64,000 nucleotides of DNA from contig JAJYID010000001.1 of the NCBI GenBank assembly GCA_021790235.1, forward strand, positions 43,131 to 107,130, given 5' to 3'. The stretch's first letter is position 1. Every line of letters starts with the position of its first letter. Position numbers and translations under genes: made by a program. Below are positions 3,424 through 30,328 of this stretch, in pieces. This DNA comes from a bacterium (GTDB lineage Bacteria; Patescibacteriota; CPR2; UBA1875; JAJYID01). The notes under the pieces were generated by a model, which made no database searches, had not been told where the DNA came from, and was given only the letters and a program-made list of their open reading frames with translations.

Positions 3424-4149
3424 TCATTTTTTGTGGCTAACAGCTATTTTCCCGGCCATCAGATTAGCAGCTCTTAAAAGGCTGTCAAATGTTCCCGCAT
3501 CTTCCCAGATTCCCTCAATTACATCAACACTTAGTTCACCCTTTTCTAGATAGATATTATTTAAATCGGTTATTTCTAGCTCGCCTCTATCAGAACGTTT
3601 CTGCTTTTCAACAAATTTAACCACACGATTATCATAGGTATAGAGCCCCACAACCGCATAATTGCTCTTTGGTTTTTGGGGTTTCTCTTCTATAGTTACT
3701 GCATTCATTTTCTCATCAAAGTTAACTACACCGTATCTTTCCGGATCATGGACTTCCTTGGCATAGATCTTTGCCCCTCTTTTAAAATTTTTAATCTGAT
3801 CGGAAAAATCATGGTCAAAGATGTTATCACCAAGAATGAGAGTTACATTATCTTCATCAATAAAGTCTTTCCCATAAATAAAAGCCTCGGCCAGACCACC
3901 GGGATTTGGCTGGACCACAAAGCTGAATTGTGCTCCGAACTCTTTTCCTGTCCCCAGGAGGTTAAGATAATGACCGGCGAATTCCGGCGAAACTATTATT
4001 AAAATCTCTTTGATGCCCGCTTTGACCAAAGTCTCTATCGGGTAATAGATCATTGGTTTGTTATAGACCGGCAAGAGCTGCTTTGACGTGACCCAAGTCA
4101 GAGGTCTAAGACGTGTTGCGCTCCCTCCGGCAAGTATTATTCCTTTCAT
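3424..4149 (-). CDS. rfbA: glucose-1-phosphate thymidylyltransferase
   Basis: MKGIILAGGSATRLRPLT... nucleotidyltransferase N-terminus characteristic of RmlA. Confidence 0.85.
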   Translation of the reverse strand: MKGIILAGGSATRLRPLTWVTSKQLLPVYNKPMIYYPIETLVKAGIKEILIIVSPEFAGHYLNLLGTGKEFGAQFSFVVQPNPGGLAEAFIYGKDFIDEDNVTLILGDNIFDHDFSDQIKNFKRGAKIYAKEVHDPERYGVVNFDEKMNAVTIEEKPQKPKSNYAVVGLYTYDNRVVKFVEKQKRSDRGELEITDLNNIYLEKGELSVDVIEGIWEDAGTFDSLLRAANLMAGKIAVSHKK

Positions 4150-5024
4150 TTTTGCTCTCTTGTTATTTCTTTTAAAAATTTTCTAAAGTCAGCACTTAAC
4201 TTTTCATGCTTTAGGGCCATTTTTACGGTAGCTTTTAAAAAACCAAGTTTATCTCCTGTGTCTAGCCACTCACCCTCTATTTTTTTGCCATAAATTGGCC
4301 TACCTTCTTCCAGCATTATATCAAAAGCGTCAGCCAGCCTGATTTCACCAGATTTCCCCTCTCTCATATTACTAAGAACTTCAAAAACATCTGGGGTGAT
4401 AATGTACTTCCCCACAGCTACAAGATTAGACGGCGCAACTTCCGGATCAGGCTTTTCAACTAGTTTTTTTATCTCATAAATATCCTCGGTCAATTTTTTA
4501 CCATCGATTACACCGAATTTTTTTACTTCATTTTTCGAAATTTTGCTCAAGCCGATAATCGGTTCACGATAATTCTTAAAAGTTTCTATCAGCTGTTGAG
4601 ATGAGGGCACTTCACTATCATAAAGGCAATCCCCGAACATCACAAGAACCGGCTCGCTTCCTAAAAGATGGGCAGCCTGCAGAAGCGCATGACCATCGCC
4701 AAGCGGAAGCGACTGACGAACATAAGAAAATTTGGCAAGGTTAGGAATTTTCTGAACCGCCGCCAAAAGGTCTTTTTTATTTTTTTCGACTAAAGTATCT
4801 TCAAGCTCATATGAGATATCAAAATGATCCTCGATAGCTCTTTTCCCCCGACCCGTAACAAAGATAATTTCCTCGATGCCTGAAGCAACTGCCTCTTCAA
4901 CTAGATACTGAATAACAGGTTTATCAACAATGGGCATCATTTCTTTAGGCATCGACTTTGTGGCCGGCAAAAATCTAGTGCCAAAGCCCGCTACCGGCAT
5001 AACTGCCTTTTTTACTTTGTCCAA
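4146..5024 (-). CDS. galU: UTP--glucose-1-phosphate uridylyltransferase
   Basis: AVMPVAGFGTRFLPATK motif and 292 aa length typical of GalU. Confidence 0.8.
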   Translation of the reverse strand: MDKVKKAVMPVAGFGTRFLPATKSMPKEMMPIVDKPVIQYLVEEAVASGIEEIIFVTGRGKRAIEDHFDISYELEDTLVEKNKKDLLAAVQKIPNLAKFSYVRQSLPLGDGHALLQAAHLLGSEPVLVMFGDCLYDSEVPSSQQLIETFKNYREPIIGLSKISKNEVKKFGVIDGKKLTEDIYEIKKLVEKPDPEVAPSNLVAVGKYIITPDVFEVLSNMREGKSGEIRLADAFDIMLEEGRPIYGKKIEGEWLDTGDKLGFLKATVKMALKHEKLSADFRKFLKEITREQK

Positions 5025-7320: not shown

Positions 7321-8673
7321 ATGGATAATAAAAGCTTATGGCAAGCAGTCCTGGGAGAACTAGAACTAACCTTATCCAAGGCCAACTTCACTACGTGGTT
7401 TCGAGGAACCAATATTATTTCTCAGGAAAAGGGAGAAATTATCATTAGCGTACCTAACGTTTTCACTAAGGAATGGTTGGAAAACAAATATAACTCTAAA
7501 ATAAAAGAAGTCTTAGAGCATATTACCGGCCCTATATCAAAAATTACGTATAAAGTTGGCCAAGTCGAGGCACTCAAAGAAGAGATTCAAGAAGCTGCAA
7601 GCCAAGAAGAGGCTCTAGATTTCGACATCGAAGAAATGCCCGAGGTCTTGGATAGTTTAAACCCTAAATATATTTTCGATAATTTTGTGATTGGAGAAAC
7701 AAACAAGCTGGCTACAGCCGCCTGCCAATCCATAGCTAAAAACCCCGGCAGTGCCTATAATCCTCTTTTTATCTACGGGGGAGTGGGTTTAGGAAAAACT
7801 CATCTTATCCAAGCGATCGGAAATGAAATGAAAAAGAAGAACCCTAAAAAAAGGGTTGAGTACATCACTAGTGAAAAATTTACCAATGAACTTATAAAAG
7901 CAATTTTTGATAAAAAAACTGACGCCTTTAAAAACAAATACAGGAAGGTTGATGTTTTAATAGTTGATGACATACAATTCCTCGGCGGAAAAGAGCAGAC
8001 TCAAGAAGAATTCTTTCACACTTTTAATGCTCTTCATCAATCAAACAAACAGGTGGTTTTAGCTTCAGATAGGCCGCCAAAAGCAATACCCACTCTAGAG
8101 GAGCGCTTGAGGTCTCGGTTTGAGTGGGGTCTACTTGTTGACATTCAGCCTCCCGAGGTTGAAACACGTATAGCTATTTTACAAAAAAAGGCCATTCTGC
8201 GCGGCTACGAGCTTCCGCTTGAAATATATGATTATATTGCCAGAAATATTCAGCACAACGTTCGTGAACTTGAAGGAGCCTTAAATAGAATTATTGCTTA
8301 TGCGGAATTAAACAACAAAAAACCGGACATGACACTAGCCCAAAATGTACTGGGGAGCCTTCTTTCAAATCCAAAAAGAAAAGCGCTCACCGGTAAAAAA
8401 ATTCTCTCTGGCGTTGCCGACTTTTTTGATCTTTCTGTTTCCGATTTAATCAGTAAAAAAAGAGATAAAGAAATAGTTCTGCCAAGACAAATTGCCATGT
8501 ATTTAATGAGAGAAGAGCTAAGCCTTTCCTATCCAAAAATTTCAAGGGAAGCCGGTAAAAATGATCATACTACCGCTATGCATGCTTGTTCTAAAATAGA
8601 AAAGGAAATGGATAAAGACGAACCCCTTAGACATAATATTAATTTAATTCGTGAGAGATTATATATCAGCTAA
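7321..8673 (+). CDS. dnaA: chromosomal replication initiator DnaA
   Basis: AAA+ Walker A GGVGLGKTHL, DnaA domain IV and 450 aa length. GGAG ribosome-binding site 7 nt upstream. Confidence 0.95.
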   Translation: MDNKSLWQAVLGELELTLSKANFTTWFRGTNIISQEKGEIIISVPNVFTKEWLENKYNSKIKEVLEHITGPISKITYKVGQVEALKEEIQEAASQEEALDFDIEEMPEVLDSLNPKYIFDNFVIGETNKLATAACQSIAKNPGSAYNPLFIYGGVGLGKTHLIQAIGNEMKKKNPKKRVEYITSEKFTNELIKAIFDKKTDAFKNKYRKVDVLIVDDIQFLGGKEQTQEEFFHTFNALHQSNKQVVLASDRPPKAIPTLEERLRSRFEWGLLVDIQPPEVETRIAILQKKAILRGYELPLEIYDYIARNIQHNVRELEGALNRIIAYAELNNKKPDMTLAQNVLGSLLSNPKRKALTGKKILSGVADFFDLSVSDLISKKRDKEIVLPRQIAMYLMREELSLSYPKISREAGKNDHTTAMHACSKIEKEMDKDEPLRHNINLIRERLYIS

Positions 8674-8934
8674 ATATGTGGAAAAGATAAGTTTTTTTGG
8701 GGAAAAGGCGTGAAAATATTGATAATAAATATGTGATAATAAAAAATGAAAAAATATTTTTAAACAACAAGTTAATTTCATCCCCATAAAAATAACCTAT
8801 AAAATCCCATAAAAAACACAAGGAAAAATATAAAAAATAAACTTAGAAAATGACTTATAGACAGTTTACACAGACACTATAACTAACTAATACTAAATTT
8901 ATATAAAAAATATCTAATAAGAATGTGAGGAAAA
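8674..8934. promoter_or_regulatory. dnaA-dnaN intergenic AT-rich region; candidate DNA-unwinding element / oriC part 2
   Basis: Extremely AT-rich 260 nt stretch. The same TGTGGAAAA 9-mer occurs at 8677-8685, directly after the dnaA stop codon. Confidence 0.4.
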
Positions 8935-10041
8935 ATGAAAGTTACTCTATTAAAAGAAAATCTATCTAAAGGACTAAATATTATAAGCAGAATAGTCTCA
9001 ACTCGAGGAAGCCTTGAAGTTTTAGGTAATATACTTATTAAAACAGAGAAAGGAAGAGTATGTTTATCAGCTACAAACTTAGAAGTAGGAATAAACTATC
9101 GGATTGGGGCTAAGGTTGATAACGAAGGTGCTATTACTGTTCCTGCCCGGCTCTTTAGTGAATTTGTCAATTCTCTCCCAAATGAAAAGATTACTTTAGA
9201 ACTCGATGGCGATACTCTGATATTAAAATCAGATAATTATGAATCAAATATCAAAGGTATCTCAGCAGATGAATTTCCTTTAATTCCGGAAATAAAAACA
9301 GGTAAAGTGATGGATATAAAATCTTTAGAACTAAGAGATATAATATGTAAAGTAGCTTTCGCAGCAGCTATTGATGATTCTAGACCGGTTCTTGCTGGAG
9401 TATATTTAAAAATCGAAGGCACAAAAGTAACTCTAGCAGCCACAGATAGTTATCGTTTAGCAGAAAAGGTTATTACTTTAAAAAATGGGAAAAGCAAAAA
9501 AGAAGAATTAATACTGCCGGCTAAAACTTTGCTTGAGTTAAGCCGTATTTTAGGTGAAATTAAAAATGATACTTTGGTGAGTGTGTATTTATCAGAAAAT
9601 CAAATACTTTTTGAAACTGACGGACTTGACTTTATCTCTCGCCTTATTGAAGGTCAATTTCCAAATTACCAGCAAATCATCCCGGATAATTCTGATACAA
9701 AAGGCGTTATTAATAAAGACGAGTTTCTTACCGCTGTAAAAATCGCCAGTCTTTTTGCGAGAGAAAACGCTAATAGTATAAAATTATCCATGAAATCTAA
9801 AGGTGTTTTAGAGGTTGATTCCGGAGGTTCTCAGGTCGGACAAAATAAGGCAAAAATTCAGGCAAAGGTCGATGGCCGGGATGGTGATGCATCCTTTAAC
9901 GGAAAATATATTATAGACGTCCTAAATATCTTAAGTGATAAAGAGATAAAGTTTGAGATTAGCGGCAAACTGAACCCGGGAATTGTTAGAACTGTGGGCG
10001 ACAAAGGATATATTTACATTATTATGCCGCTTAGAAACTAG
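8935..10041 (+). CDS. dnaN: DNA polymerase III beta sliding clamp
   Basis: 368 aa, three-domain clamp pattern, positioned after dnaA. Confidence 0.9.
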   Translation: MKVTLLKENLSKGLNIISRIVSTRGSLEVLGNILIKTEKGRVCLSATNLEVGINYRIGAKVDNEGAITVPARLFSEFVNSLPNEKITLELDGDTLILKSDNYESNIKGISADEFPLIPEIKTGKVMDIKSLELRDIICKVAFAAAIDDSRPVLAGVYLKIEGTKVTLAATDSYRLAEKVITLKNGKSKKEELILPAKTLLELSRILGEIKNDTLVSVYLSENQILFETDGLDFISRLIEGQFPNYQQIIPDNSDTKGVINKDEFLTAVKIASLFARENANSIKLSMKSKGVLEVDSGGSQVGQNKAKIQAKVDGRDGDASFNGKYIIDVLNILSDKEIKFEISGKLNPGIVRTVGDKGYIYIIMPLRN

Positions 10042-10164
10042 AATGTGCGCTTTGTACTTGTAAGCTATAATATAGATAAATAATAAGGGATTTTACAGAC
10101 TATTTCATTTTTGTATGGATCTTAATCTTTCATTCTGGATTCATATTTAAAATACTATATTCAA

Positions 10165-11280
10165 ATGTTTATTAATTATTTAAAATTACAAAACTTCCGG
10201 TCATATAAAAGTTTAAATATTAAACTTGATGTAAATACTATTTTTATCGGTTCAAACGCTCAAGGGAAAACTAACCTGCTTGAAGCCATATTTTTGATGA
10301 CAGTTGGCAAATCTTTTCGAGGTAAAGAGCGTGACATGGTTTTTTGGGATAAGGACTTTTTCCGCATTGAAACTAAGTCTGAAAATCCTAGACCGTTAAA
10401 AGTAGAATATATTTATGAATCAGGTGTTGGTGGCGGCAGGAAAACAGTAAAGATAAATGGTGTTAAAAGGGCTAGTTCCGCTCTTTTAGACGGTCTGAAA
10501 TGCATTTTCTTTTCTCCGGATGAGATAGATATGTTTTTTAACTTTCCGGCTGAGAGACGGCGGCATTTTAATATTTTTATTTCTCAAATAAATAAAGAAT
10601 ATGCCAGAGAACTTATTAAATACAGAAAAATTTTGGATCAGCGAAACGCGCTGCTTCGTAAAATCAGTGAAAGAAAGGCAAGTATTGATGATCTGGAGTT
10701 ATGGGATGGAAAGCTGGCTGAACACGGCTCAAAAATTATTAGCGAAAGACACAAAATAGCAGATGAGCTAAATAAAACCTTGGTATGTGACTATAAAAGG
10801 GTGTCAAAAGATAAAGAACAGCTGGCACTTATCTATAACCCGGCAATATCTAGTAAAAAAAGCGCCAAGGAAAATGAAGATTTTTGGGCTGCTTTTCTAG
10901 AGATTCTTTTGAAATCCAGAGAAAGGGACTTAGCGGCTAAGGTTACTACTTCTGGCCCTCACAGGGATAATTTTTCATTCCAGTTAAAAGGTAGAGGCGT
11001 GGAGACTTTTGCTTCCAGAGGAGAGCTACGTTCTATTATTTTGGCCCTAAAGCTATCTGAGGCCAATCTTTTGAGAGAAAAAACAGGAGAACAACCAATT
11101 TTACTGCTCGATGATGTTTTTAGTGAGCTAGATGAAGATAGAAGGGAGCATTTGACCAAAACTTTTAATGGCCAGCAAACTCTGGTGACTACCAATGACT
11201 TAGATCATATTAGCGTCGATTTACGAAAAAGTTCTAGAATTTTCAAAGTGGAAGACAGCAAAGTAGAGGAACTTAAATGA
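10165..11280 (+). CDS. recF: DNA replication/repair protein RecF
   Basis: Walker A GSNAQGKTNLLEA, ABC signature and Walker B LLLDDVFSELD. Confidence 0.9.
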   Translation: MFINYLKLQNFRSYKSLNIKLDVNTIFIGSNAQGKTNLLEAIFLMTVGKSFRGKERDMVFWDKDFFRIETKSENPRPLKVEYIYESGVGGGRKTVKINGVKRASSALLDGLKCIFFSPDEIDMFFNFPAERRRHFNIFISQINKEYARELIKYRKILDQRNALLRKISERKASIDDLELWDGKLAEHGSKIISERHKIADELNKTLVCDYKRVSKDKEQLALIYNPAISSKKSAKENEDFWAAFLEILLKSRERDLAAKVTTSGPHRDNFSFQLKGRGVETFASRGELRSIILALKLSEANLLREKTGEQPILLLDDVFSELDEDRREHLTKTFNGQQTLVTTNDLDHISVDLRKSSRIFKVEDSKVEELK

Positions 11281-11561
11281 ATAATCTGGGTGATGTTTTT
11301 GAAAAAAAGCTGGCACAGCTTAGGATAAAAAAACAAATTAACGCCGCACTTATTTGTGAAGCGTTTGATAAGGCCGTCGCAGAAGTTTTCGGAGAACAGG
11401 GAGCTAAAAACGTGAAAGCCATTTCATATAAAAACAACACTTTGAAGGTTGGGGTATCATCAAGTGTTTGGGCGAGTGAGATTAATCTCAGACAACTTGA
11501 ATTGGCAGAAGATAGGAGTATGAGGTTTATATATAAGCAAGATTTACATTACCTAAGGTAA
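11277..11561 (+). CDS. DUF721 / DciA-like protein
   Basis: 94 aa ORF overlapping the recF stop by an ATGA junction. DUF721 proteins, the DciA helicase-loader family, typically sit next to dnaN-recF. Confidence 0.5.
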   Translation: MNNLGDVFEKKLAQLRIKKQINAALICEAFDKAVAEVFGEQGAKNVKAISYKNNTLKVGVSSSVWASEINLRQLELAEDRSMRFIYKQDLHYLR

Positions 11562-12058
11562 GCGGGGGTATCCCACACGATGTTTATATTTGGGTCATGG
11601 GGGTCAATACCTGTGTTTTTTAATAAATTTAAAATTTTGTCTTTATAAATTGAGGTTGGGGTTTTCAAGAAAGTTACAAAGAGAGAATTATTTATATTAT
11701 AAAGATTATAATCATTTGTTTTAATGGGCAAAGTGTCGAGAAATTTATTAAATTTTTCAACATTTGGGTCTATTAGTGTAAATTTTAAAGCGGTGTCATT
11801 TTTAAGATCCACCTCCTCATTTACTTCAGAATAACCAGCCTTAGTGATTTTCACCATATGTTTTCCGGAATTTAGCTTAAAATAAGTTGGAGACTGGCTA
11901 CTGGTTTGATTATCGATTGTTACTTTTGCATCAGATGGCTGGGTTGTTATGTAAAATTTAAACTTCTTAGGGACAAGAAAGTAAATCAAAAAACAACCAA
12001 CAATAATCATAATAATTATGAGGATGATGAATTTAAACTTGTCTATTAGTTGATGCAT
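11549..12058 (-). CDS. membrane-anchored PEGA-like domain protein
   Basis: N-terminal transmembrane helix (IILIIIMIIVGCFLIYFLV) followed by a beta-rich PEGA-like segment (AKVTIDNQ...GKHMVKITKAGYSEVNEEVDL). Confidence 0.45.
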   Translation of the reverse strand: MHQLIDKFKFIILIIIMIIVGCFLIYFLVPKKFKFYITTQPSDAKVTIDNQTSSQSPTYFKLNSGKHMVKITKAGYSEVNEEVDLKNDTALKFTLIDPNVEKFNKFLDTLPIKTNDYNLYNINNSLFVTFLKTPTSIYKDKILNLLKNTGIDPHDPNINIVWDTPAYLR

Positions 12059-12082
12059 TTGAATATATTAAAATATAGGTTT

Positions 12083-14650
12083 TTATTTTTTACAACTAAA
12101 GGCATCTCCGTAACCATTATTATTTAAATAGTTGAGAGGCATTGAGTAAGTTTTGGTCATACTGGTATGGTTGTTATTATCAGAAGAGGGTGAGTACTTT
12201 TCAAGGTAAGCATCAAATGATAGTGGACCCGCTTTACACTCTGTGCATGATCCGTTTGGATTTACATAAACATCGTATATGTAAGCTGCCTGTCCGTAAA
12301 GGCTGTCCTTCCAGCTTGCGTAACTATACCATTTCCTCCCATTTACCATACAGCCTGGTTGACTTGCAGTTGCAGTTCTTCCGAAAGCATTATGACCTTC
12401 AGCGCAAGGAATGGCTGTGCCTAAAGATGATTCTGTCATTGCTTCTCCAATAAGTATTAAAGGGTTGATATTGTTTTCTTGAGCAGCTTGAACAAAATCC
12501 AACCCCATGCCTTTATATGGGGAGTCGATACCGGTACTTTCTATAAAAGCATTGATACCCTGAGCCATTTTATCTGGGTCAGTAATATTTGCTGAACCGC
12601 CCGCCGGTGATAAGCAATCAGGCCCGGCTTCACCACTTCCTCCACATTTCAAATCCTTATCTGCCAAAGAAACTAGGCCTGACATAATATTGATAAACTT
12701 TTCTTCATTTAGGGTGTTGCCATTGAGTACATTCCACTTTCTCACAAATCCTATGTCGTACTGGTCTTCTATGAAAATGAGGTTCGATAGATCTATGGAG
12801 TTAGCTAAAGACCCAAGACCTTGGGTGTCTCCACCCAAGGAGTGGATAGTATAATCCTGCGCATAAGTGTCTTTTATTCTCTCTGCTTCGTTGTAAACCA
12901 TGGCTTCATCCATCTTGTGTTGGGGATTGAACTCATACCAAAGACCACCTTCACGATCAGCGCAAGTAGGGATTTTTATCTCATCTTTTAAGGGTCGGTT
13001 AGGGTCAATAGGTGGTTTTTGCTTCCAAGGGTTCCCGCAGTCAAGTATGGCTGGATCGCTAAGTGTCCCCATGTTAGTAGTTGCACCTGAGATTGCTAAA
13101 AGTATCAGCGGATTAATTTGTTCTCCTCCATCAAGTTCGCTGGCACTCACAAAAAGCGCCCCGGGATCATTCCCGTTTAGGTGGTTAAAAGGTGAAGTTG
13201 GATACTTCTGTTTCAAATATTTATTAATGGCATCAATAAGTTCAAGACGATTTTGTCCTGATGTAGGAGCATCTTTTGCCTTGCTTTCTTCAAAATCTAC
13301 TCCCCACATACCCATACAGCCCATTCTTGCCTCAAGTTTTGTATATTGGTCGCAATATTTGCAAATGTTTGAGTTTAATAAACATATCTGGTTAGATGTG
13401 TTAGAGTTGGATGTACTTGACGGAAGACCTGTTCTTATATCGTTTAGTTTGCTATACAAATTAGTACCAGGACAGGATGTATTATTCATATCTGTATGTG
13501 CTCCATCGTGATTGTCATCGATATTTCCACAACCACTGCCTGTGCATTTATAGTCCTTATGCCCGGCGATATTGGGGCTAGAGATTGTTGGATGTCCCTC
13601 TGTCCCCGGGAATGCGTCGTTGCCTTGAAGATCAATATGGTATGTTTCATTTAACCAAAGAATGAGATTTCTTGCTGCAGCCATACTTGCTTCACTGGGC
13701 TCGGCATTTTCATAATTTCCCATAATGGCTATTCCAATACTTCCGACGTTGTAGCCCTTAGTATGCCCCCCGACTACATTCATACCACCGGCACGACCTT
13801 CATAAATATTACCCTGCTTGTCTATTACATAGTTGTAACCAATATCTCCCCAGCCCCTTTTAATATGTTCCTGCCAGATACCCCGCATGTCTGCTTTCGG
13901 GTCGTTTGTTGTAGTTGAAGCAGTATGATGGATAATGTATTTTTTAGCCGGTGAGTACTGAGGGGCCCAGTTAGGTGATGATTCGCCATCAGGGCAACCC
14001 CAATCAGTCCTGGAAATAATATGGGGGCTTTGCGGATTATCAGCGTTTGCGATCGGAAAAATCAATAGTCTGCCCAAAAAACTTTCAACCTTTTTTAAAA
14101 TGCCGCTTCTGGTATCCATGTAGTAGAGATTTATATTTTTCAGTATCGGGCTTAAACTTGTGTTAGAAGTTTTAAGCACAATTTTATATTGGATCTGGTT
14201 ACCGGTATAGAAAAATGGGGCTTCAGGGCTTAGTTTTTGATTTGCAGTTCCATCTTTTTCTCCGGTATCCCCTTCTATTTTTTGCCAGTTGCTCCATTTG
14301 CCGTTCTCCCCCAGTCTTAGATATAATTCTAAGCTTGTACCTTGGGGTGTTTCTTGTTGCCAGTATGGAGCCACCCCACTGAATTCAAAACTGGTGGTAA
14401 AGACTTTTGATTTGTATATTCTCTCAGGGTTAAAAGACCCGGCGGCATTTTTATCTAGAGAAATATTTTTATCTGTTTGGTCTTCTTTTATGGTTGATGT
14501 TTTGAAGACTTTAGTGGATGTTTGAGTAGAAGAAGCAGTTTTCTGTTGTTTCGTTTTAATGAAAGAAAGGCCTGTGGCAACAGCCAATAAGAAAAGTGCC
14601 AAGAGGACGGAGGTAAACATTAAAAATCTTTTTTTTGATGTTATTTCCAT
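12083..14650 (-). CDS. secreted multidomain peptidoglycan hydrolase (Amidase_2/PGRP domain + GH73 glucosaminidase-like domain)
   Basis: N-terminal signal/transmembrane segment. Central region YIIHHTAS...GWGDIGYNYVIDKQGNIYEGRAGG...GGHTKGYNVGSIGIAIMGNY is an Amidase_2/PGRP fold. The C-terminal region INPLILIGEAMTESSLGT...HNAFGRTA...YSYASWKDSLYGQAAYI follows the FlgJ/GH73 pattern. A Cys-rich linker separates the two. Confidence 0.6.
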   Translation of the reverse strand: MEITSKKRFLMFTSVLLALFLLAVATGLSFIKTKQQKTASSTQTSTKVFKTSTIKEDQTDKNISLDKNAAGSFNPERIYKSKVFTTSFEFSGVAPYWQQETPQGTSLELYLRLGENGKWSNWQKIEGDTGEKDGTANQKLSPEAPFFYTGNQIQYKIVLKTSNTSLSPILKNINLYYMDTRSGILKKVESFLGRLLIFPIANADNPQSPHIISRTDWGCPDGESSPNWAPQYSPAKKYIIHHTASTTTNDPKADMRGIWQEHIKRGWGDIGYNYVIDKQGNIYEGRAGGMNVVGGHTKGYNVGSIGIAIMGNYENAEPSEASMAAARNLILWLNETYHIDLQGNDAFPGTEGHPTISSPNIAGHKDYKCTGSGCGNIDDNHDGAHTDMNNTSCPGTNLYSKLNDIRTGLPSSTSNSNTSNQICLLNSNICKYCDQYTKLEARMGCMGMWGVDFEESKAKDAPTSGQNRLELIDAINKYLKQKYPTSPFNHLNGNDPGALFVSASELDGGEQINPLILLAISGATTNMGTLSDPAILDCGNPWKQKPPIDPNRPLKDEIKIPTCADREGGLWYEFNPQHKMDEAMVYNEAERIKDTYAQDYTIHSLGGDTQGLGSLANSIDLSNLIFIEDQYDIGFVRKWNVLNGNTLNEEKFINIMSGLVSLADKDLKCGGSGEAGPDCLSPAGGSANITDPDKMAQGINAFIESTGIDSPYKGMGLDFVQAAQENNINPLILIGEAMTESSLGTAIPCAEGHNAFGRTATASQPGCMVNGRKWYSYASWKDSLYGQAAYIYDVYVNPNGSCTECKAGPLSFDAYLEKYSPSSDNNNHTSMTKTYSMPLNYLNNNGYGDAFSCKK

Positions 14651-14659
14651 TTTTTACTT

Positions 14660-15250
14660 TTAAAATTTGTTATCGTAAACCCAATTTATTTTTAAACTTT
14701 GAGGATCGGCCGCCCCATGGTCGCTAAACCACTTGTACACTTCTGCTTTTGACTGCGCCTCACGTTCCCTGAAAATATAAACATGCATTGTCCCATCTTC
14801 ATAAGGTGCACTTATATAGTAGTCTTTTGCTTGGACAGGCAGCTGGGATGCATACGGATATGCATCGTTATAATCATTAACCTTTTTTGCAACTTCAGCT
14901 GGACTTTGCATATAACCTCCCCCTGTTCCTATTGCTTCAGGGGGGAGGATCGAGAGAGAGTAGTTTAGACTGACAGATTTTTTTAGAGGAGCAATTGAAA
15001 ATGAAGTTTTCAGGTTTTTATAGTCTTTGTGTGATATTTCAATGTTGAAAGTTCCTGATTTAAGTTCAATAGTGGCAGGTGTTTTGCCGGTGATATCTCC
15101 TATCTTAAAACTTGCTGACGATGGAGAGGAGATAATAGTCACCTTTTTCTTTGTCTGGCCTTCTAAAAATAAAAGTATTAAAAGGAAGCATATAAGAGTT
15201 ATGCTGATTAAAGAGGCAATAATAATGAATTTCTTATTATGGGTGTACAT
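14660..15250 (-). CDS. membrane-anchored PEGA-like domain protein
   Basis: N-terminal transmembrane helix followed by a PEGA-like segment (ASFKIGDITGKTPATIELKSGTFNIEISHKDYKNLK). Paralogous in architecture to the 11549..12058 protein. Confidence 0.45.
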   Translation of the reverse strand: MYTHNKKFIIIASLISITLICFLLILLFLEGQTKKKVTIISSPSSASFKIGDITGKTPATIELKSGTFNIEISHKDYKNLKTSFSIAPLKKSVSLNYSLSILPPEAIGTGGGYMQSPAEVAKKVNDYNDAYPYASQLPVQAKDYYISAPYEDGTMHVYIFREREAQSKAEVYKWFSDHGAADPQSLKINWVYDNKF

Positions 15251-16814
15251 AAAAATATGCTCCGCTTGGATCTATGCTTTGTAAATGGCTGACAGTGATA
15301 ATATATGGGTCGGGGCCGTTTGGGTATGGATCATTGACGGTAATATTGTCACCCTTTTTTGAGTCCAGCACAATAAAGTGGCCGCCATACATATTAGTTG
15401 AAGCGATGATCGGTTCGTTCCCTTTCTCTATGCGTTGCATGGCTTCACTAAATCCGATTTGTGATGAACCCATATTGTAGTATTTACTTGCAACATCAGG
15501 GAATAAGCTCCATTTAGACCCCCCGTCTACTTCATTTAAAGCTACGCCTTGTTTAGCTACCTGTCCGGGGTCAGTATTTTGGCCGTAATATGCTAGGACC
15601 ATAGCCAAAGAAGTCGGGCCACAACCCCATGCACACACAGTGGCACCATATGTGTTATTTGCCCATCTTGGATCGCATTGACTAAAAAGTGGGACCTTAC
15701 TTAATGGGCTACCCGGATTCGGAGAAGCGCTTGGGTTGCGGAAAAGATCCTCAAGTGAACAAGCTGTATTATAACCCTCGGTAGATGTTTCATTTTTATA
15801 CCAGCCCAAAACTCCCAGACGATTTCTATATCCATCAGCATCGAAGCCGTCCCAGAGCCAATGACTATTATTGTAATAGTCAAATTTATCTTTTAGATAT
15901 CGATCGGTGAAACATTGCTCTTGTGATTCCTTTTTAACGTACAAACAATGGTAGTTGCTAATGTATTCTTCGGCAATGCCCACGGGATATTGGCCATCAG
16001 GCCTTATTTTGTTTTGATAATTTCCATCCTCATCAGGTATAAGTTTACCGCTAGGGTCTCTTAGGGCATTGGCTGTTTGAAGCTCTTGGCCAATTTTTTC
16101 TAAGCGGTCTTTTACGTTACCCTGCCCTCCCACATCTTCCATAAAACAGTCATAGCAGTTTTGGAGCCCCGCATCTTCTATGTTGCGAAAATCTATGGCT
16201 GCGATCATTTCCCAGGGTACGCCAGTTTTCTGGCCTGCTTTTCTGACTACTCTACCATAACATCCAGCATCATTATTGCCTTCATCAAGGGTTTTTGTTA
16301 CAACCTTCCCTTCCTTATTATGGGTTGTGATGACACCTGAAGTTTTGAGAGCATCTTCAGACCATTGAGGAATCTGAGTAACTGTACATATATTATTGGA
16401 GTTTCCCGGGCCCTTACCTCCAAATACGTTATAAACTTTAGAAGCGGCACCTGTCACAACGTCTATAGTATAATGTTTGAACATTCCGATTGTACCTTCC
16501 ACTAGCGCAAAGGGGCCAAAAATTATCGGTACCCATATCGAAACAATTATACTTAAGATGATGGCACCGCCTAAAATAATTTCTACCCATCTTCTTCTAA
16601 TGACCTCCAGCGCATTTTTTACAGCCCCGAAAACATTGCCTTCAGCGGCCTCGGCAGCAGCCATTCCGGCTTGTGCAACATCTGCGCCAACTTTACCCCC
16701 GGCTTTTTCACCAACTTCTCGAGCCTTATTACCGGCTGTATCCCCTGAGGCAATTGGGTTTTTCCCTTTCTTTCTGAGTTTCCGCAGATTTTGATCGTCA
16801 TATGTATTTGCCAT
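15237..16814 (-). CDS. VirB1-like membrane-anchored cell-wall hydrolase (C39-like/CHAP-like papain-fold peptidase domain)
   Basis: Single transmembrane helix around residues 80-110. The C-terminal domain motif QCDPRWANNTYGATVCAWGCGPTSLAMVLAYYG ... GGHFIVL has the Cys/His arrangement of Peptidase_C39_2 / CHAP cell-wall hydrolases. Its position next to VirB4 is typical of T4SS-associated hydrolases. Confidence 0.5.
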   Translation of the reverse strand: MANTYDDQNLRKLRKKGKNPIASGDTAGNKAREVGEKAGGKVGADVAQAGMAAAEAAEGNVFGAVKNALEVIRRRWVEIILGGAIILSIIVSIWVPIIFGPFALVEGTIGMFKHYTIDVVTGAASKVYNVFGGKGPGNSNNICTVTQIPQWSEDALKTSGVITTHNKEGKVVTKTLDEGNNDAGCYGRVVRKAGQKTGVPWEMIAAIDFRNIEDAGLQNCYDCFMEDVGGQGNVKDRLEKIGQELQTANALRDPSGKLIPDEDGNYQNKIRPDGQYPVGIAEEYISNYHCLYVKKESQEQCFTDRYLKDKFDYYNNSHWLWDGFDADGYRNRLGVLGWYKNETSTEGYNTACSLEDLFRNPSASPNPGSPLSKVPLFSQCDPRWANNTYGATVCAWGCGPTSLAMVLAYYGQNTDPGQVAKQGVALNEVDGGSKWSLFPDVASKYYNMGSSQIGFSEAMQRIEKGNEPIIASTNMYGGHFIVLDSKKGDNITVNDPYPNGPDPYIITVSHLQSIDPSGAYFYVHP

Positions 16815-18625
16815 TACTCTTCCTCATATTCTTCCTCAAGTTCTTTTAACTGCTCAGGGTCTGTAGTTACAAGCTCGTCTTCTGTTTCAGAACGGATGAC
16901 TTGTATAATAGCGTGGTTAAGACCGGCAATAAAGAGCCCCTCTCCTGTTTCACAGCTAAGCAGAAAGTTTCTCTCCGCATCAGTAAGGTCAAAGACTTCT
17001 TTAATTAAATCTGCTTGAGACGGGTGTTGTTTTAAGAGCAGTGATAAGGAGGCATTTGATATTAGAGGCTTGCCGTACTCGCTTTTTAGAAAATCTCCTA
17101 TATCCTGGCCAATTACAGTTGTGCCAAGATAATATTTTCTTCCCCTTTTTGCCACAGAATATAAAAACTGCGCAGAGTCTTCATATTTCATGAGCATCCA
17201 GGCCTCGTCGACCACTAAAAGGCGCTTCCTTTTATCACTTTTTACCTTGGTCCAGATGAAGTTTAAGGTAGAATACATAGCGATCGGACGCAGATCTTCT
17301 TCAAGGTCGCGGATGGAGAAACAGACAAAACGATTTGCTAGTGATACATTTGTATAATCATTGAAAAGTCCTGAAAAAGTACCGTCTGTAAACTTATTTA
17401 GCCTTAAGGCCATACTTTCACCTCCCGGCATACTTTCTAGTACGTTTTTTAGATCAGACATCAGTGGTGGGGTCAGGTGGTGGGTTGCAGGGTCTTCAGT
17501 AATGCCTTTTGCGGCATAAGTCTCGACTAAAGCTTTGTCTAAAATGTTTTTTTCTTCATCTGTAAGGTCTCCGAGCATTACTCTCAAAAGTCCGTTTAAT
17601 ATAATTATATTGCTGCGAAGAGCATCTCGCTGATCCTCGAAGTCAGAGACATTTTGGGGAAGATCAAAAGGGTTCAATATTTGTTCTGAGTTTAGATGGA
17701 TGTTAATGTATGAACCACCAACCGCCTCACAAAGTTCTTCAAACTCCTTTTCGGGGTCGATCACAATAGCATCAGCATCAAACATCAGTTGTCTGAGAAT
17801 CTCAAGTTTTGCCGCATAGGATTTACCAGCGCCCGATGTAGCGAGGATGACTGAATTATAGTTTTGCAGCTTAAAACGATCAAAAATAATTAGACTGTTA
17901 TTAATCTTGTTTGCACCGTAGAGAATTCCTTCATTGTTTGTAAGGGTGGAGGAAACAAAAGGAAAAGATACAGAGACTGCTTCAGTGTCCATATTTCTAT
18001 TTATAGAAAGTTCATCTTTACCCATGGGCAGACAAGTGTTAAAACCTTGTTCCATCTGAAGGTTTGCATGTTTAGTAAAGACCATATGGATGCCAAAAAG
18101 ATTTTCTAAGCTTTGAGTATCTTCATTTAACTTATCAAGGCTGTCGGCATATATTGTTACATAGATACCTTGCTGAAACATCTTTGCCAGACCGGTAGTG
18201 ATATTGTCCCTTAAATCTTCAATATCGGCGTAAGTTGCCTCGAGAAATGGGTTGCGAGTCAGGCCTTTCTCTGCCTCCATGACTAGAGATGATTCAACTT
18301 GTGAAGACTTAGATCTCAGCTTCTTTAGGGTTGACTCGGTATTTTGTGGATAGATATGCATCGAAAGATCTAAAATAATATCCACATTTATAATTTCAGA
18401 AAGCCAGCCAGAGTTTAAAAAACGAGGATATTCATAAACGAAAAGGGTCCTGGCGAAGGTATCGCCCAGTTTAATATAATCAAAAGTCACTTCAAAAGAT
18501 GAGGGCGATATCATATCACGAATGGACATTATACCGGCACGAAATGCTTGCATCTGATTTTGCTTTTGAATTTCCTCAGGCGTTAAAGGCTGTTTCTTTT
18601 TGATTAAAAAATCTAAAATACTCAT
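16814..18625 (-). CDS. VirB4/TrbE-family T4SS ATPase, C-terminal (ATPase) portion
   Basis: Walker A ILATSGAGKSY and Walker B RLLVVDEAWMLM. The N-proximal FEVTFDYIKLGDTFARTLFV motif is typical of Gram-positive-type VirB4 homologues. Confidence 0.8.
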   Translation of the reverse strand: MSILDFLIKKKQPLTPEEIQKQNQMQAFRAGIMSIRDMISPSSFEVTFDYIKLGDTFARTLFVYEYPRFLNSGWLSEIINVDIILDLSMHIYPQNTESTLKKLRSKSSQVESSLVMEAEKGLTRNPFLEATYADIEDLRDNITTGLAKMFQQGIYVTIYADSLDKLNEDTQSLENLFGIHMVFTKHANLQMEQGFNTCLPMGKDELSINRNMDTEAVSVSFPFVSSTLTNNEGILYGANKINNSLIIFDRFKLQNYNSVILATSGAGKSYAAKLEILRQLMFDADAIVIDPEKEFEELCEAVGGSYINIHLNSEQILNPFDLPQNVSDFEDQRDALRSNIIILNGLLRVMLGDLTDEEKNILDKALVETYAAKGITEDPATHHLTPPLMSDLKNVLESMPGGESMALRLNKFTDGTFSGLFNDYTNVSLANRFVCFSIRDLEEDLRPIAMYSTLNFIWTKVKSDKRKRLLVVDEAWMLMKYEDSAQFLYSVAKRGRKYYLGTTVIGQDIGDFLKSEYGKPLISNASLSLLLKQHPSQADLIKEVFDLTDAERNFLLSCETGEGLFIAGLNHAIIQVIRSETEDELVTTDPEQLKELEEEYEEE

Positions 18626-18653
18626 TTTTTATTGCTAACAACTTTATAATTTA

Positions 18654-19379
18654 TCAAATATTGTTCTCCACATCTTCTCTTTTAGAAATATATTGCGCCC
18701 CTAGCTGATCCAAATGTTTTATATGTTCATGTCCGGCAGTTTCGGGATTATAACAAGCATAAAAAAGTTCTATTAAGGCTTCTGTGGGCAAAGGTGTGGA
18801 AGTGAGCCCAACTTCTGCTAAGGTGGACATTGTGACTTCTGCCCTTTGTCGCAACTGTTTCAAACCATTTTCATAACTTTCATTCGTTGCGCTTGGATGG
18901 CTCGTCTTTTTTAGCCCTAAGTATGAAAGTAGACCTTTTGAGCTGCTCTCAAGCACATTTGGATAATAAGGAACAATAACAAAGAATCTTTTGTCCATTA
19001 CATTCACACTAGACAGGATGTCTTCTAGAAAGTCTATATAATCTTCGGTTTGTTCTTTTAAGAGAGAATTTTTTTGTTTTGTTGCCTCTTTTTTTAGTGT
19101 GGCAAGGTAAGAAGTGAGGTCGACTTTTCTAGATTGAACTAGAAACTGAAGAGGGAAGCTCACGGAATTTAGGGCGCTTTCATACATATCCATAACGGTG
19201 TTTTGTTCTTCTTCGGAACGAAGTGCCAGATTTATGCTAGAAACCATGATGACTACATGGAGTGAACCATCTTTTAGAATCAAGGTGTCGTCTTTGATTT
19301 GATCAATTTCCAAAAATCTTTGAGTGCTCTCAAAGTGTTGTTTATTGCTATGTGTTGATTTTTTGTTGAAAGGGAACAT
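18654..19379 (-). CDS. VirB4-family N-terminal domain protein (separate ORF; split or frameshifted virB4)
   Basis: 241 aa with a VirB4 N-domain-like pattern (FLEIDQIKDDTLILKDGSLHVVIMVSSINL...). It ends 28 nt upstream of the ATPase ORF in a different reading frame. The two ORFs together total 844 aa, the size of a full VirB4. Confidence 0.5.
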   Translation of the reverse strand: MFPFNKKSTHSNKQHFESTQRFLEIDQIKDDTLILKDGSLHVVIMVSSINLALRSEEEQNTVMDMYESALNSVSFPLQFLVQSRKVDLTSYLATLKKEATKQKNSLLKEQTEDYIDFLEDILSSVNVMDKRFFVIVPYYPNVLESSSKGLLSYLGLKKTSHPSATNESYENGLKQLRQRAEVTMSTLAEVGLTSTPLPTEALIELFYACYNPETAGHEHIKHLDQLGAQYISKREDVENNI

Positions 19380-20029
19380 TATTCTTCTTCTATTTTATAG
19401 CCAGTTATATCCGGTTTTTTATAATTATATTTTTTTGCCGGGTTTATGGATGCCATTTCTGAGATAAGAGGCTCTTTCCCTGGCTGTTTTGCCTCGACTT
19501 TCTTTCGAGCATCTTCAAGGCTTTGGTCAATCACGGCATCTCCTTTGTCAAAAACTGTTTCTGCTTTTATTTCATTTACTTTATTTTGTAAGCCGTAAGC
19601 TCCACCGGTGTCTACCATGAGGGATATTTTTTCTATTTCTCCTTCCGCGTTTTCAAGAGGTGCCTTTGGTGGCAAGTTTTGCCCCTGTATGGTATCAGAT
19701 TTTACCTGATCTGTCTGTGGCTTTGAACCTTGATCATTTTCTTTTTTCCAGACTCTCTGCCTCGGTTTTGAAATAAAAATGGCAAAAGGGATAATGTGGG
19801 TATAAACAGGCCTGCCATTATAAGGTACAAAACATATTAGAAGAGAAAAAGATCCGAAAAAGGCTCCGATTATTACTGCAGTTATAGTAGACATACCAAG
19901 ATTCATAAGAAGCGCCATGACTATTACGGTGACTACAACAGCGACAAAGACAAAACCAAACTGTTTTAAGGTGAATGGCCCTATAATTTTGTCTTCAACG
20001 TTCATTTCTTGGGGTATTTTATGCTGCAT
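19379..20029 (-). CDS. VirB3/PrgI-like small T4SS membrane protein
   Basis: N-terminal KIIGPFTLKQFGFVFVAVVV plus a second transmembrane helix fits the PrgI-family hallmark. It sits directly upstream of virB4. Start and stop codons abut the neighbouring genes. Confidence 0.5.
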   Translation of the reverse strand: MQHKIPQEMNVEDKIIGPFTLKQFGFVFVAVVVTVIVMALLMNLGMSTITAVIIGAFFGSFSLLICFVPYNGRPVYTHIIPFAIFISKPRQRVWKKENDQGSKPQTDQVKSDTIQGQNLPPKAPLENAEGEIEKISLMVDTGGAYGLQNKVNEIKAETVFDKGDAVIDQSLEDARKKVEAKQPGKEPLISEMASINPAKKYNYKKPDITGYKIEEE

Positions 20030-20035
20030 AACTTA

Positions 20036-27180: not shown

Positions 27181-29247
27181 TCATTTCTTAGGCTGCTTTG
27201 ATATGTTCATTAACCAGATAAGGTATCCTAAACTGGTGATGCCTAATATCGCGCCAACCCAGTCTGTAAGGCCATAACTGAAGTAGAGTTTTACATGTTT
27301 GGTTGTGGGCACTATGAGCATATAAGAGGGTGATACGAGAAAGGGGCCTTTAGCACCTTTAACTCTCCAGGTGGGAAAATAGGAAACCTTGACGATGTAA
27401 GGTTGGCCTATGTTAGGGGTATCAAACTCCAGAGAATCATTTGTTTGCTTAATATTTTTTGGGATGTTTGGATCACTCTCACTTTTTATGGTTTTGAGGT
27501 ACTTTGCTTCTTTGTTACCTTGGGCAAAGACAATTGGTTGGTTTAAATCCCCGTTTTTATACCAATTAATAGATTGTGCCAGCCAGTATTTATTTTTGTT
27601 TACTACTTTAAAGTCTTTCACCGGTTCAACAAGTTGGACTTTTTTGAATTCATAAACATTAAAAGGACCAATTTTTTTTGGTTTCTTGAGTTCCGGGGAT
27701 CTATCAGCGTCACTCTTCACCTTCTCGGAATAGGCAACGAAATACCTTGCTCCTGACATTGCAAGGTGACGAATACCCTTTTCAAAGTTATAAGGCGGCA
27801 GATCAAGACCGGCGACACCTGACATCGGAGTAGTGGTAGTTTCTGCTTGATTGATAAAGACAAAAGGAGCGCTTGGGGACGACTCGACCAGAAGCCCTTC
27901 GAATGTCGGCTGATCTGAGAAAAGCGGAATATTTTCAAGTGTTCTGGTAGTACCATATTTTTTAAACTCTGGACGGTGCTCCCACATTACCCTACCCTTC
28001 GGAAGAGTTTTTAAGTAAGCAAACAGATCTGACGCTTCGGGCCATGCAGCCATTTTTTCAAATCCTCTAAAGTCTGTCTTAAACCACGAGATAGCTGGCT
28101 CTAAATGGAGACTGACTCCATAGAAAGAAATAGCTAGAACCGCAGCTAATGTTAAGAAAAAAATTTTTAGATATTTCTTTTTAAGGTAATTTAGTGCGAT
28201 TGCTAGGAAATAAGCAGCCAGAAAAAGAATGGCAAAAGAAATATACGGCAGGAAGCGGGTGTTCCAGACCATGGTGTTCGTTAACGAAAGATAGAGAAGC
28301 AGGGAGACCCAAGCCAAAGTAAAAAAAGGAATGAGCTTTCTTTCTTTATTACAGATTGCCCATCCTATGCCCAAAGCGGCTGTTATCAAAAGAGGCAGCC
28401 AGTAATCAGGTAAAAGTTCCCCTAGACTAATATTAGCGGTCCAGCTCATAGTACCGTAGTCTCCATGATAAAAAAGAACGCCTAGAGACCACCAGGCAGA
28501 GAGAAGAAAAATACCCACATAAACGAAAGCCGTATATTTTATCCCGCTTTTTAAGTCCTTTGTTTGAAAAGGGAAAGCTAAGGCAAGGGGGATAAGCAGC
28601 ATGCCGGCAATCGGATGAGTAAGCATGACTGCCGTACCGACCAGACAGTTCCAGATAAGGTATTTTTTCTCTGTCATCCCCTTATACATCAGACCGATAA
28701 ACATGAAAATTAAAAGGATACTTAAAGTATACGAAAACTCTCCGGAAGTGAGTGATGCTAAATTGCCGCCGTAGATGTTGTATTTATCCAGAAAAAGTAA
28801 AAACAAACTGAAAACCGCTCCGAGTTGGGGAGCAGGAAATCTCATATCCAGCCATTTTAAGGGGAAATAGAAAGCTAGCGGAAAAGCTAGGATTATCGAA
28901 AAAACTACTATTTTGAGGGCGACATTTAGGGGAATGATATACCCAAAAATTACTGTGATGATATACAGAAGAGGCGGATAAAAAAACAAAAATGGAAATC
29001 CGCTAAACCAGTCAGGAGACCACCATCTGATATGCGGAAAGATTTGTTTTAGGTATTCAACTACGTAAACATGAGATCCAAGGTCACCTCCGGTGAGATG
29101 GGTATTTGTGAAAACCGTTTTTATGTCAAGATTTATGAGAATAAAACCATAAACAAGTGCAAAAATTATAAAAGTAATAAAGCCTCTTTGGTGTTTGCAC
29201 AGAAAGTCATAATTGCGACCTAATTTTTGAGTTAAACCTTTCCTCAC
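27181..29247 (-). CDS. large polytopic membrane protein (about 13 transmembrane helices + C-terminal soluble domain); possible GT-C-type glycosyltransferase/YfhO-like
   Basis: 688 aa. N-terminal two-thirds very hydrophobic with motifs such as WWSPDWFSGFPFLFFYPPL. C-terminal roughly 230 aa hydrophilic. The functional assignment is tentative. Confidence 0.4.
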   Translation of the reverse strand: MRKGLTQKLGRNYDFLCKHQRGFITFIIFALVYGFILINLDIKTVFTNTHLTGGDLGSHVYVVEYLKQIFPHIRWWSPDWFSGFPFLFFYPPLLYIITVIFGYIIPLNVALKIVVFSIILAFPLAFYFPLKWLDMRFPAPQLGAVFSLFLLFLDKYNIYGGNLASLTSGEFSYTLSILLIFMFIGLMYKGMTEKKYLIWNCLVGTAVMLTHPIAGMLLIPLALAFPFQTKDLKSGIKYTAFVYVGIFLLSAWWSLGVLFYHGDYGTMSWTANISLGELLPDYWLPLLITAALGIGWAICNKERKLIPFFTLAWVSLLLYLSLTNTMVWNTRFLPYISFAILFLAAYFLAIALNYLKKKYLKIFFLTLAAVLAISFYGVSLHLEPAISWFKTDFRGFEKMAAWPEASDLFAYLKTLPKGRVMWEHRPEFKKYGTTRTLENIPLFSDQPTFEGLLVESSPSAPFVFINQAETTTTPMSGVAGLDLPPYNFEKGIRHLAMSGARYFVAYSEKVKSDADRSPELKKPKKIGPFNVYEFKKVQLVEPVKDFKVVNKNKYWLAQSINWYKNGDLNQPIVFAQGNKEAKYLKTIKSESDPNIPKNIKQTNDSLEFDTPNIGQPYIVKVSYFPTWRVKGAKGPFLVSPSYMLIVPTTKHVKLYFSYGLTDWVGAILGITSLGYLIWLMNISKQPKK

Positions 29248-29299: not shown

Positions 29300-30328
29300 T
29301 TAGGAAGCAGGCAGTTGCGCTGCATTTTGTGGTTCTTGGAAAGAATAATGTTCATTAAAGTTGGAGAGTTTAATATCTAGGGAGGCGCTCCAAGATGTTT
29401 TGTCTTGGCTGAGCTGAAACTGTAAATTAGCTTCATGAAGTTGGTGATCTTTCTTGCCGATATAAAGGTCGCCCTTTGCCAGCGCAGTAGTCTTGTTTAA
29501 ATTATTACTAAAATCATCTGTCAACTGAAAACCACCGGCTGTTAAAAGAGTTGTTCCATAATAAGCCACAGCGTTTTCTTTGCCGTAATCAAAGTGGTAA
29601 TGATAACAATCAATGCTATCCACTTTTTCATCTTTCATTTGGACTGCTTGCTTTTCAAATAGGTTAGAGTTGATAACACTGCTGGGAAAGCTAAAAGGCA
29701 GATTATTATAATCTTTCCCTCTATACCATTGATTTTCATTCATTTTGGAATTCTCTAAAGCGTTTTGTGAAGACTTAATAATCTTTGCATATTGTTTCGC
29801 ACCAAGGACTATATTTTGGCTGTCACTTTCAAAACCTTGGGAAATTGTTTTGGTTGAATAATCTTTTTTAATACTGTTTGTATTACTGTAGTCGTAATGG
29901 CCATCGATTAAAGTAGTAGTTTCAGTCCCCTGCACCGGTTTCTGAGATATCTTAGTTTCCATTTGGTATGCTTTTAGGTTTTCTGCACTTTGTATAATCT
30001 GGTCTTTCACTTTGGCCGGCGAGCTATTCAAAAAAATGAGAGATACCGCTGTTCCAATCACAACAATCACAGCAACTATTGCGAAGACCCTCCAGACAGA
30101 TACAAAGAGGGATAATACCTTTGAAAATAATGAAGAATAACTTTGGATTGGTTCGGCTGCTTCTTGAGGATGCAAATTAATATTAGTTGTAGAAGCATTA
30201 TCACCCAAAACTTCAAAAATGGTTGACTCTTGCCAACCATTTTTTTTGAGCTCTAAAGCTATATCTTGATCACTTAGCCCGGCAGCTCTTGAGTTTCTGA
30301 CATATTGCTCTAATCTTGGGTCTGCCAT
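29300..30328 (-). CDS. membrane-anchored protein, paralog family A (shared with 56211..57404)
   Basis: N-terminal roughly 40-aa motif (LEQYVRNSRAAGLSDQDIALELKKNGWQ), a single transmembrane helix, then an extracytoplasmic domain ending in the conserved DLYIGKKDHQLHEANLQF motif. Confidence 0.45.
   Translation of the reverse strand: MADPRLEQYVRNSRAAGLSDQDIALELKKNGWQESTIFEVLGDNASTTNINLHPQEAAEPIQSYSSLFSKVLSLFVSVWRVFAIVAVIVVIGTAVSLIFLNSSPAKVKDQIIQSAENLKAYQMETKISQKPVQGTETTTLIDGHYDYSNTNSIKKDYSTKTISQGFESDSQNIVLGAKQYAKIIKSSQNALENSKMNENQWYRGKDYNNLPFSFPSSVINSNLFEKQAVQMKDEKVDSIDCYHYHFDYGKENAVAYYGTTLLTAGGFQLTDDFSNNLNKTTALAKGDLYIGKKDHQLHEANLQFQLSQDKTSWSASLDIKLSNFNEHYSFQEPQNAAQLPAS

Follow-up and report, generated by a model that had tools for sequence, protein, structure and literature searches.

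Does a VirB4 ATPase that is distributed over two reading frames represent a damaged gene, a recoded gene, or two genes? The question is raised by a 64,000-nucleotide stretch of contig JAJYID010000001.1 from a bacterium of the patescibacterial lineage CPR2, hereafter called the window, in which the VirB4 component of a type IV secretion system (T4SS) is encoded by two adjacent open reading frames (ORFs) on the minus strand (Table 1). The original prediction described ORF1 as the N-domain of VirB4 and ORF2 as its ATPase, and offered a true split with the N-domain functioning in trans, a programmed frameshift, or a recent inactivating frameshift or sequencing error as explanations. The evidence presented here makes it very probable that ORF1 and ORF2 are distinct genes, both functional, within a chromosomal T4SS of the Patescibacteria type (MPF_FATA-derived), and that they encode a TrsD-like protein and the VirB4 ATPase, respectively. 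The true split is thus the part of the earlier interpretation that stands, whereas the frameshift and error options do not. The arrangement has already been published, and the window is an ordinary instance of this widespread layout, which the original prediction did not recognise.

Junction and conservation of the split

The ORF list contains ORF1 (241 residues) and ORF2 (603 residues) in different frames, each starting with an ATG, and the gap of 28 nucleotides (nt) between them was found at the junction as described earlier. The 3′ end of ORF1 reads ...ENNI TGA TAA, which is a double in-frame stop with the TAA as the first codon of the spacer. Three more stop codons are located within approximately 10 codons upstream of the ORF2 ATG, in the frame of ORF2 itself. 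Therefore, neither a single indel nor a single ribosomal frameshift can fuse the two ORFs, and a one-nucleotide indel restoring one continuous ORF, by which the original prediction could have been overturned, is impossible for this sequence. ORF1 ends and ORF2 starts at the same positions as in their relatives, and ORF2 begins at its own ATG with a conserved N-terminus. Together, the two ORFs encode 844 residues, which agrees with the earlier estimate of one Gram-positive-type VirB4 and is within the length range of fused VirB4 proteins from monoderm bacteria, such as that of Enterococcus faecalis pMG2200 with 799 residues.

Inspection of the spacer revealed no GGAG-type Shine-Dalgarno motif upstream of the ORF2 ATG, as noted previously. 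A GGAG-type motif is present at positions −18 to −3 in only 17 of the 51 window ORFs of at least 120 residues, and the genes for the PrgI-like, TrsD-like, and VirB6-like proteins are likewise devoid of a Shine-Dalgarno sequence. The absence of the motif at ORF2 is uninformative, because most window ORFs and the neighbouring T4SS genes do not have one either. Many ORF starts in the window, which has a GC content of 39%, are preceded by A-rich stretches instead.

The geometry of the gene pair was measured in 80 related loci containing both genes. None of the 80 loci is fused: in every case, the N-terminal ORF closes at a stop codon and the ATPase ORF has a separate start. The gap between the two genes ranges from −38 to +511 nt, with a median of 7 nt, and the three possible relative frames are used about equally (25, 25, and 30 loci). 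In the closest relative, the proteins of which share 71% sequence identity with ORF1 and 87% with ORF2, the spacer is 3 nt long and the genes are in the same frame. The gap is 414 nt long in two CPR2 loci (L002 and L003). Three loci carry an additional small, unrelated gene between the pair, encoding a GIY-YIG protein, a 23S rRNA-intervening-sequence protein, and a PDDEXK_3 protein (Table 1). These inserts look like small selfish or insertion-prone genes that occupy the intergenic site.

The best 120 database relatives of ORF1 are all stand-alone proteins of 204–313 residues, with sequence identities from 100 down to 36%. All of them carry the TraC-like domain PF26593, and they originate from WS5, CPR2, Parcubacteria, Kerfeldbacteria, and other Patescibacteria. 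For ORF2, the 120 best relatives are likewise all stand-alone, with lengths of 569–637 residues and identities from 100 down to 52%. When one genome per GTDB species was scanned, at least 575 genomes encoded a relative of ORF1. As judged from these sequences, the pattern points to two independent cistrons kept by long-term selection, and not to a pseudogene or recoding. The comparison with related genomes that had been put forward as a check thus returned two separate genes in 80 of 80 loci, and the split persists across hundreds of species while spacers and frames vary, which supports a true split.

Many of the GTDB representative records that contain the pair (L008, L009, L011–L014, L034, L061, and others) are titled 'uncultured Gammaproteobacteria bacterium', and one further record each is titled Planctomycetota and Methylomirabilis. 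These titles probably reflect placeholder or wrong taxonomy, or contaminated bins.

Correspondence of ORF1 and ORF2 to parts of VirB4

The assignment of ORF1 and ORF2 to the VirB4 N-domain and ATPase holds, with matches to the TraC_F_IV, NF041427, NF045971, and Mbov_0397 profiles. ORF1 aligns to positions 17–194 of TraC_F_IV (PF11130) with a score of 25.3 bits, below the cutoff of 28.1 bits, and covers positions 87–233 of the 894-position Mbov_0397 VirB4 profile (VirB4_plasma). A database protein identical to ORF1 has a precomputed match to the TraC-like family PF26593. The profile built from 55 sequences of ORF1 relatives could be aligned by hhalign to TrsD of Staphylococcus aureus over 179 columns, with a probability of 91.5% and an E-value of 8.5e-7. 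Like the stand-alone proteins of the TrsD/TraD type, ORF1 is small, does not contain a P-loop, and is encoded directly upstream of a VirB4 of approximately 600 residues. ORF1 probably belongs to the broad TraC-like/TrsD superfamily and not to the narrow staphylococcal subfamily.

The structure of ORF1 predicted by AlphaFold2 has a mean predicted local distance difference test (pLDDT) score of 74.8, and residues 1–21 and 222–241 are disordered. The top 14 matches of the model in a Foldseek search of the PDB are all TrwK/VirB4 chains of the R388 system, with E-values of 1e-4 to 2e-3, a probability of 1.00, and TMq of up to 0.55, whereas the next match has an E-value of 0.076. A search of the PDB sequences with the alignment profile of the TrsD-like proteins gave no match at E-values of up to 1, and VirB4 was found only by the fold comparison. 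The predicted fold of ORF1 is equivalent to part of VirB4. Among solved folds, the ORF1 model matches only TrwK/VirB4 (PDB: 7O41–7O43, 8RTB, 8RTD), the ATPase domain of which is matched by ORF2; however, TrwK is a single chain from a diderm system and shares only 12–16% sequence identity with ORF1.

ORF2 comprises the remainder of the VirB4 N-terminal domain and the P-loop ATPase domain. It matches positions 168–728 of the 752-position profile of the CD1110-family VirB4 (NF045971) with 389.8 bits (cutoff 325), positions 276–890 of the Mbov_0397 VirB4 profile, and the families PF19044 and PF12846. The Walker A motif SGAGKS and the Walker B motif VVDEAW can be read from the translation. ORF2 is similar to the C-terminal domain of VirB4 (PDB: 4AG5) with an E-value of 2e-47, and its residues 33–566 align to residues 224–767 of the fused E. 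faecalis VirB4 (E-value of 5e-55).

Judging from these alignments, ORF1 and ORF2 represent adjoining, complementary, and non-overlapping parts of a fused VirB4. From this mapping together with the fold match of ORF1, it follows that the split lies in a flexible linker that joins two sub-domains of the VirB4 N-terminal domain. TrsD corresponds evolutionarily to the first approximately 200 residues of the VirB4 N-terminal domain, and the VirB4 partner of approximately 600 residues is without exactly the segment that TrsD supplies. In the lineage of the window and in some Firmicutes plasmids, such as pGO1/pSK41, the TrsD segment is a cistron of its own located just upstream of virB4. Furthermore, the PrgI-like, TrsD-like, and VirB4 cistrons are ordered like the domains of one Mbov_0397-family polypeptide, in the profile of which the PrgI-like protein covers positions 11–105. 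AlphaFold2 prediction for the concatenated ORF1 and ORF2, run without an alignment, was unusable, with a mean pLDDT of 34.7.

Alternative explanations and proposed TrsD–VirB4 assembly

The pair could be a single virB4 gene that was split by a recent inactivating frameshift or by an assembly or sequencing error, as the adjacency of the ORFs, their different frames, and their summed length equal to that of a fused VirB4 might suggest. This has a vanishingly small probability in view of the split in 80 of 80 related loci with differing spacers and frames, the stand-alone state of each ORF's best 120 relatives, the conserved N-terminus at the ATG of ORF2, and the stop codons on both sides of the junction, which a single indel cannot overcome. 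A frameshifted pseudogene was rejected, since no intact single ORF is present among the relatives in the 80 loci and the split is not confined to the genome of the window. Programmed ribosomal frameshifting or stop-codon read-through, which would yield a fused full-length VirB4 besides the N-terminal product, is favoured by the adjacency of the ORFs alone and by one relative (L005) in which they share a frame and are separated by a single stop and one further codon. However, stop codons in both frames at the junction leave no stretch of the window with both frames open, the relative frame is not conserved, the spacer lengths vary widely, and in some relatives entire genes separate the pair. 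We consider that recoding has practically no chance of being correct, and a programmed frameshift gene was rejected because of the missing open-frame overlap in the window and the missing conservation of the relative frame.

The TrsD-like protein may instead be an independent accessory factor of the T4SS, for example an assembly or regulatory protein with its own stoichiometry, the similarity of which to VirB4 is only ancestral, so that VirB4 is not completed by TrsD. The lower conservation of ORF1 than of ORF2 in comparison with the same nearest relative (71% versus 87%) is consistent with this explanation, as is the separation of the trsD-like gene from virB4 in Gracilibacteria- or Peribacteria-type loci. 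Nevertheless, such a role is improbable when set against the mapping of the two ORFs to complementary adjoining parts of fused VirB4, the predicted VirB4-like fold of ORF1 and its relatives, the PrgI–TrsD–VirB4 gene order that mirrors the domain order of the fused protein, and the precise match between the TrsD segment and the part missing from its partner of approximately 600 residues.

Several observations weigh against the reading of the pair as a TrsD-like protein and its VirB4 partner. The match of ORF1 to the TrsD/TraD family of NCBIfam (NF041427) has an E-value of 1.1e-9 but reaches 38.4 bits compared with a cutoff of 200 bits, and therefore ORF1 is a distant relative of the staphylococcal family and not a member at that threshold. 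The ORF1 profile aligns only weakly to residues 55–209 of the fused 799-residue VirB4 of E. faecalis (E-value of 0.009, hhalign probability 4%). The placement of the ORF1-model match in the N-terminal domain of TrwK is inferred, as the matched residues are not part of the Foldseek output. In three loci with Peribacteria or Gracilibacteria labels (L039, L054, and L067), the trsD-like match at positions 4001–4700 is not accompanied by a VirB4 match in the 4 kb on each side, which is less easy to reconcile with an obligate 1:1 partnership of TrsD and VirB4. The ORFs of these three loci were analysed with genetic code 11, and their lineages may use code 25.

In the favoured explanation of two functional genes, the TrsD-like protein and VirB4 would be translated independently from one operon transcript. 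TrsD may then bind, without a covalent link, to VirB4 and to the PrgI/VirB3-like membrane protein whose gene lies just upstream, and contribute the N-terminal sub-domain through which the ATPase is connected to PrgI/VirB3 and the membrane channel. In this way, the module by which single-chain VirB4 anchors its ATPase hexamer to the membrane channel would be restored. The association of TrsD with VirB4 is suggested because the parts are fused elsewhere (the "Rosetta stone" pattern), and because of the gene order and the fold match. It is also conceivable, although unlikely, that TrsD is a dissociable adaptor, the stoichiometry or binding of which regulates the docking of the VirB4 hexamer onto the PrgI/VirB3–VirB6 channel. 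If this were true, the adaptor would be a control point for the essential, non-conjugative T4SS of epibiotic Patescibacteria, and its role could explain why the split is universally kept in Patescibacteria and why the gene can be unlinked in Gracilibacteria. For annotation, the pair should be labelled trsD-like and virB4, and not flagged as a pseudogene or frameshift.

Genomic neighbourhood and related systems

The T4SS cluster of the window is co-directional (11549-24149, minus strand) and directly adjoins dnaA, dnaN, and a recF-like gene (7321..11280), and it is located at the chromosomal replication origin region (Table 1). The stop codon of the PrgI-like gene overlaps the start of the trsD-like gene (TAATG), and the start of the C39-like peptidase gene similarly overlaps the stop of virB4 (TAATG). 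The PrgI-like protein matches PF12666 with an E-value of 1.8e-5 and a score of 25.6 bits, below the cutoff of 27 bits, and PrgI is encoded at the equivalent position in three relatives (L001, L004, and L005). The gene order downstream of virB4 is the same in L005. The hydrolases encoded downstream probably provide cell-wall-opening (VirB1-like) functions. The slot directly downstream of virB4 holds an NlpC/P60 gene in L001, a CHAP gene in L002, and the C39-like gene in the window; cell-wall hydrolases of different cysteine-peptidase types appear to replace one another at this fixed position of the cluster. Several ORFs of the T4SS cluster have no Pfam match.

Table 1. Positions of the genes and spacer discussed in the text; positions refer to the window unless another locus is named
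Feature	Locus	Positions	Strand	Size	Details
dnaA	window	7321-8673	plus		
dnaN	window	8935-10041	plus		
recF-like gene	window	10165-11280	plus		
PEGA protein	window	11549-12058	minus		
Amidase + glucosaminidase protein	window	12083-14650	minus	855 aa	
PEGA protein	window	14660-15250	minus		
C39-like peptidase-domain protein	window	15237-16814	minus	525 aa	C-terminal PF13529, 50 bits; N-terminal membrane segment
ORF2, VirB4-family ATPase	window	16814..18625	minus	603 aa	ATG start; frame differs from ORF1
Intercistronic spacer	window	18626..18653	minus	28 nt	A/T-rich (TAAATTATAAAGTTGTTAGCAATAAAAA)
ORF1, TrsD-like / TraC-like protein	window	18654..19379	minus	241 aa	ATG start
PrgI/VirB3-like membrane protein	window	19379..20029	minus	216 aa	Stop overlaps trsD-like start
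VirB6/TrbL-like polytopic membrane protein	window	20036..21679	minus	547 aa	PF04610 TrbL, 29 bits (cutoff 25.9)
VirB2-like pilin	window	21752-22108	minus		PF18895 T4SS_pilin, 50.1 bits
VirB2-like pilin	window	22137-23036	minus		PF18895 T4SS_pilin, 32.1 bits
VirB2-like pilin	window	23058-24149	minus		PF18895 T4SS_pilin, 28.7 bits
Large ORF	window	24895-26484			No Pfam match
Large ORF	window	27181-29247			No Pfam match
Large ORF	window	29300-30328			No Pfam match
T2SSE/PilB-type ATPase	window	31681-33300	minus		PF00437, E 5e-101
GIY-YIG gene between the pair	L001	5858-6076		72 aa	
PDDEXK_3 gene between the pair	L056	1857-2174		105 aa	
23S rRNA-intervening-sequence protein (23S_rRNA_IVP) gene between the pair	L072	4727-5113		128 aa	

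TrsD, the prototype of which is encoded by pGO1, is regarded as remotely homologous to the N-terminal part of VirB4 (Quinonero-Coronel et al. 2025, PMC12102498). It is the most abundant T4SS component in Patescibacteria, with 2,272 homologues in 2,221 assemblies, 1,664 of which adjoin virB4, and Gracilibacteria are the exception (PMC12102498). The loci L039, L054, and L067 without a nearby VirB4 agree with this published exception. Patescibacteria T4SS clusters are often located near dnaA, and the TrsD homologue that neighbours virB4 in Ca. Southlakia epibionticum ML1 is counted as essential, as are homologues of peptidase and lysozyme whose genes lie just downstream of virB4 (PMC12102498). 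Epibiotic growth of Ca. S. epibionticum requires its T4SS (SEML1_0006-0019; Wang et al. 2023, PMC10633639), the locus tags of which imply an origin-proximal position of the cluster.

The window resembles these Patescibacteria T4SSs (PMC12102498; PMC10633639) in the stand-alone TrsD homologue of approximately 240 residues encoded directly upstream of a VirB4 of approximately 600 residues, in the presence of PrgI/VirB3, VirB6, VirB2-like pilins, and downstream peptidase and hydrolase genes, and in the chromosomal location beside dnaA. No substantial difference from them was found, although no search was aimed at a relaxase or coupling protein, and the nearest relatives of the window are labelled WS5 or Saccharibacteria. 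The TrsD/TraD and TrsE proteins of the staphylococcal plasmids pGO1/pSK41, represented here by S. aureus SAP079A, have the same two-gene layout with 227 and 672 residues and a 14-nt spacer; however, the sequence identity is only approximately 19%. Moreover, the staphylococcal system serves plasmid conjugation and has a relaxase but no pilins, whereas that of the window is chromosomal and includes pilins. The same split occurs on Firmicutes plasmids of Clostridium perfringens (312 + 641 residues), Parageobacillus (348 + 614), and Pontibacillus (274 + 621). The single-chain VirB4 proteins of monoderm bacteria from the CD1110 family, such as that of E. faecalis pMG2200, have the same domain content and order as ORF1 and ORF2 together. 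The CD1110-family VirB4 is one polypeptide, to which the Mbov_0397 family from mycoplasma integrative and conjugative elements adds a VirB3-like part, whereas the corresponding segments are encoded by three cistrons in the window.

Approximately 8 kb from the T4SS cluster, beyond the three large ORFs listed in Table 1, there is a gene for a T2SSE/PilB-type ATPase, which presumably belongs to a type IV pilus locus.

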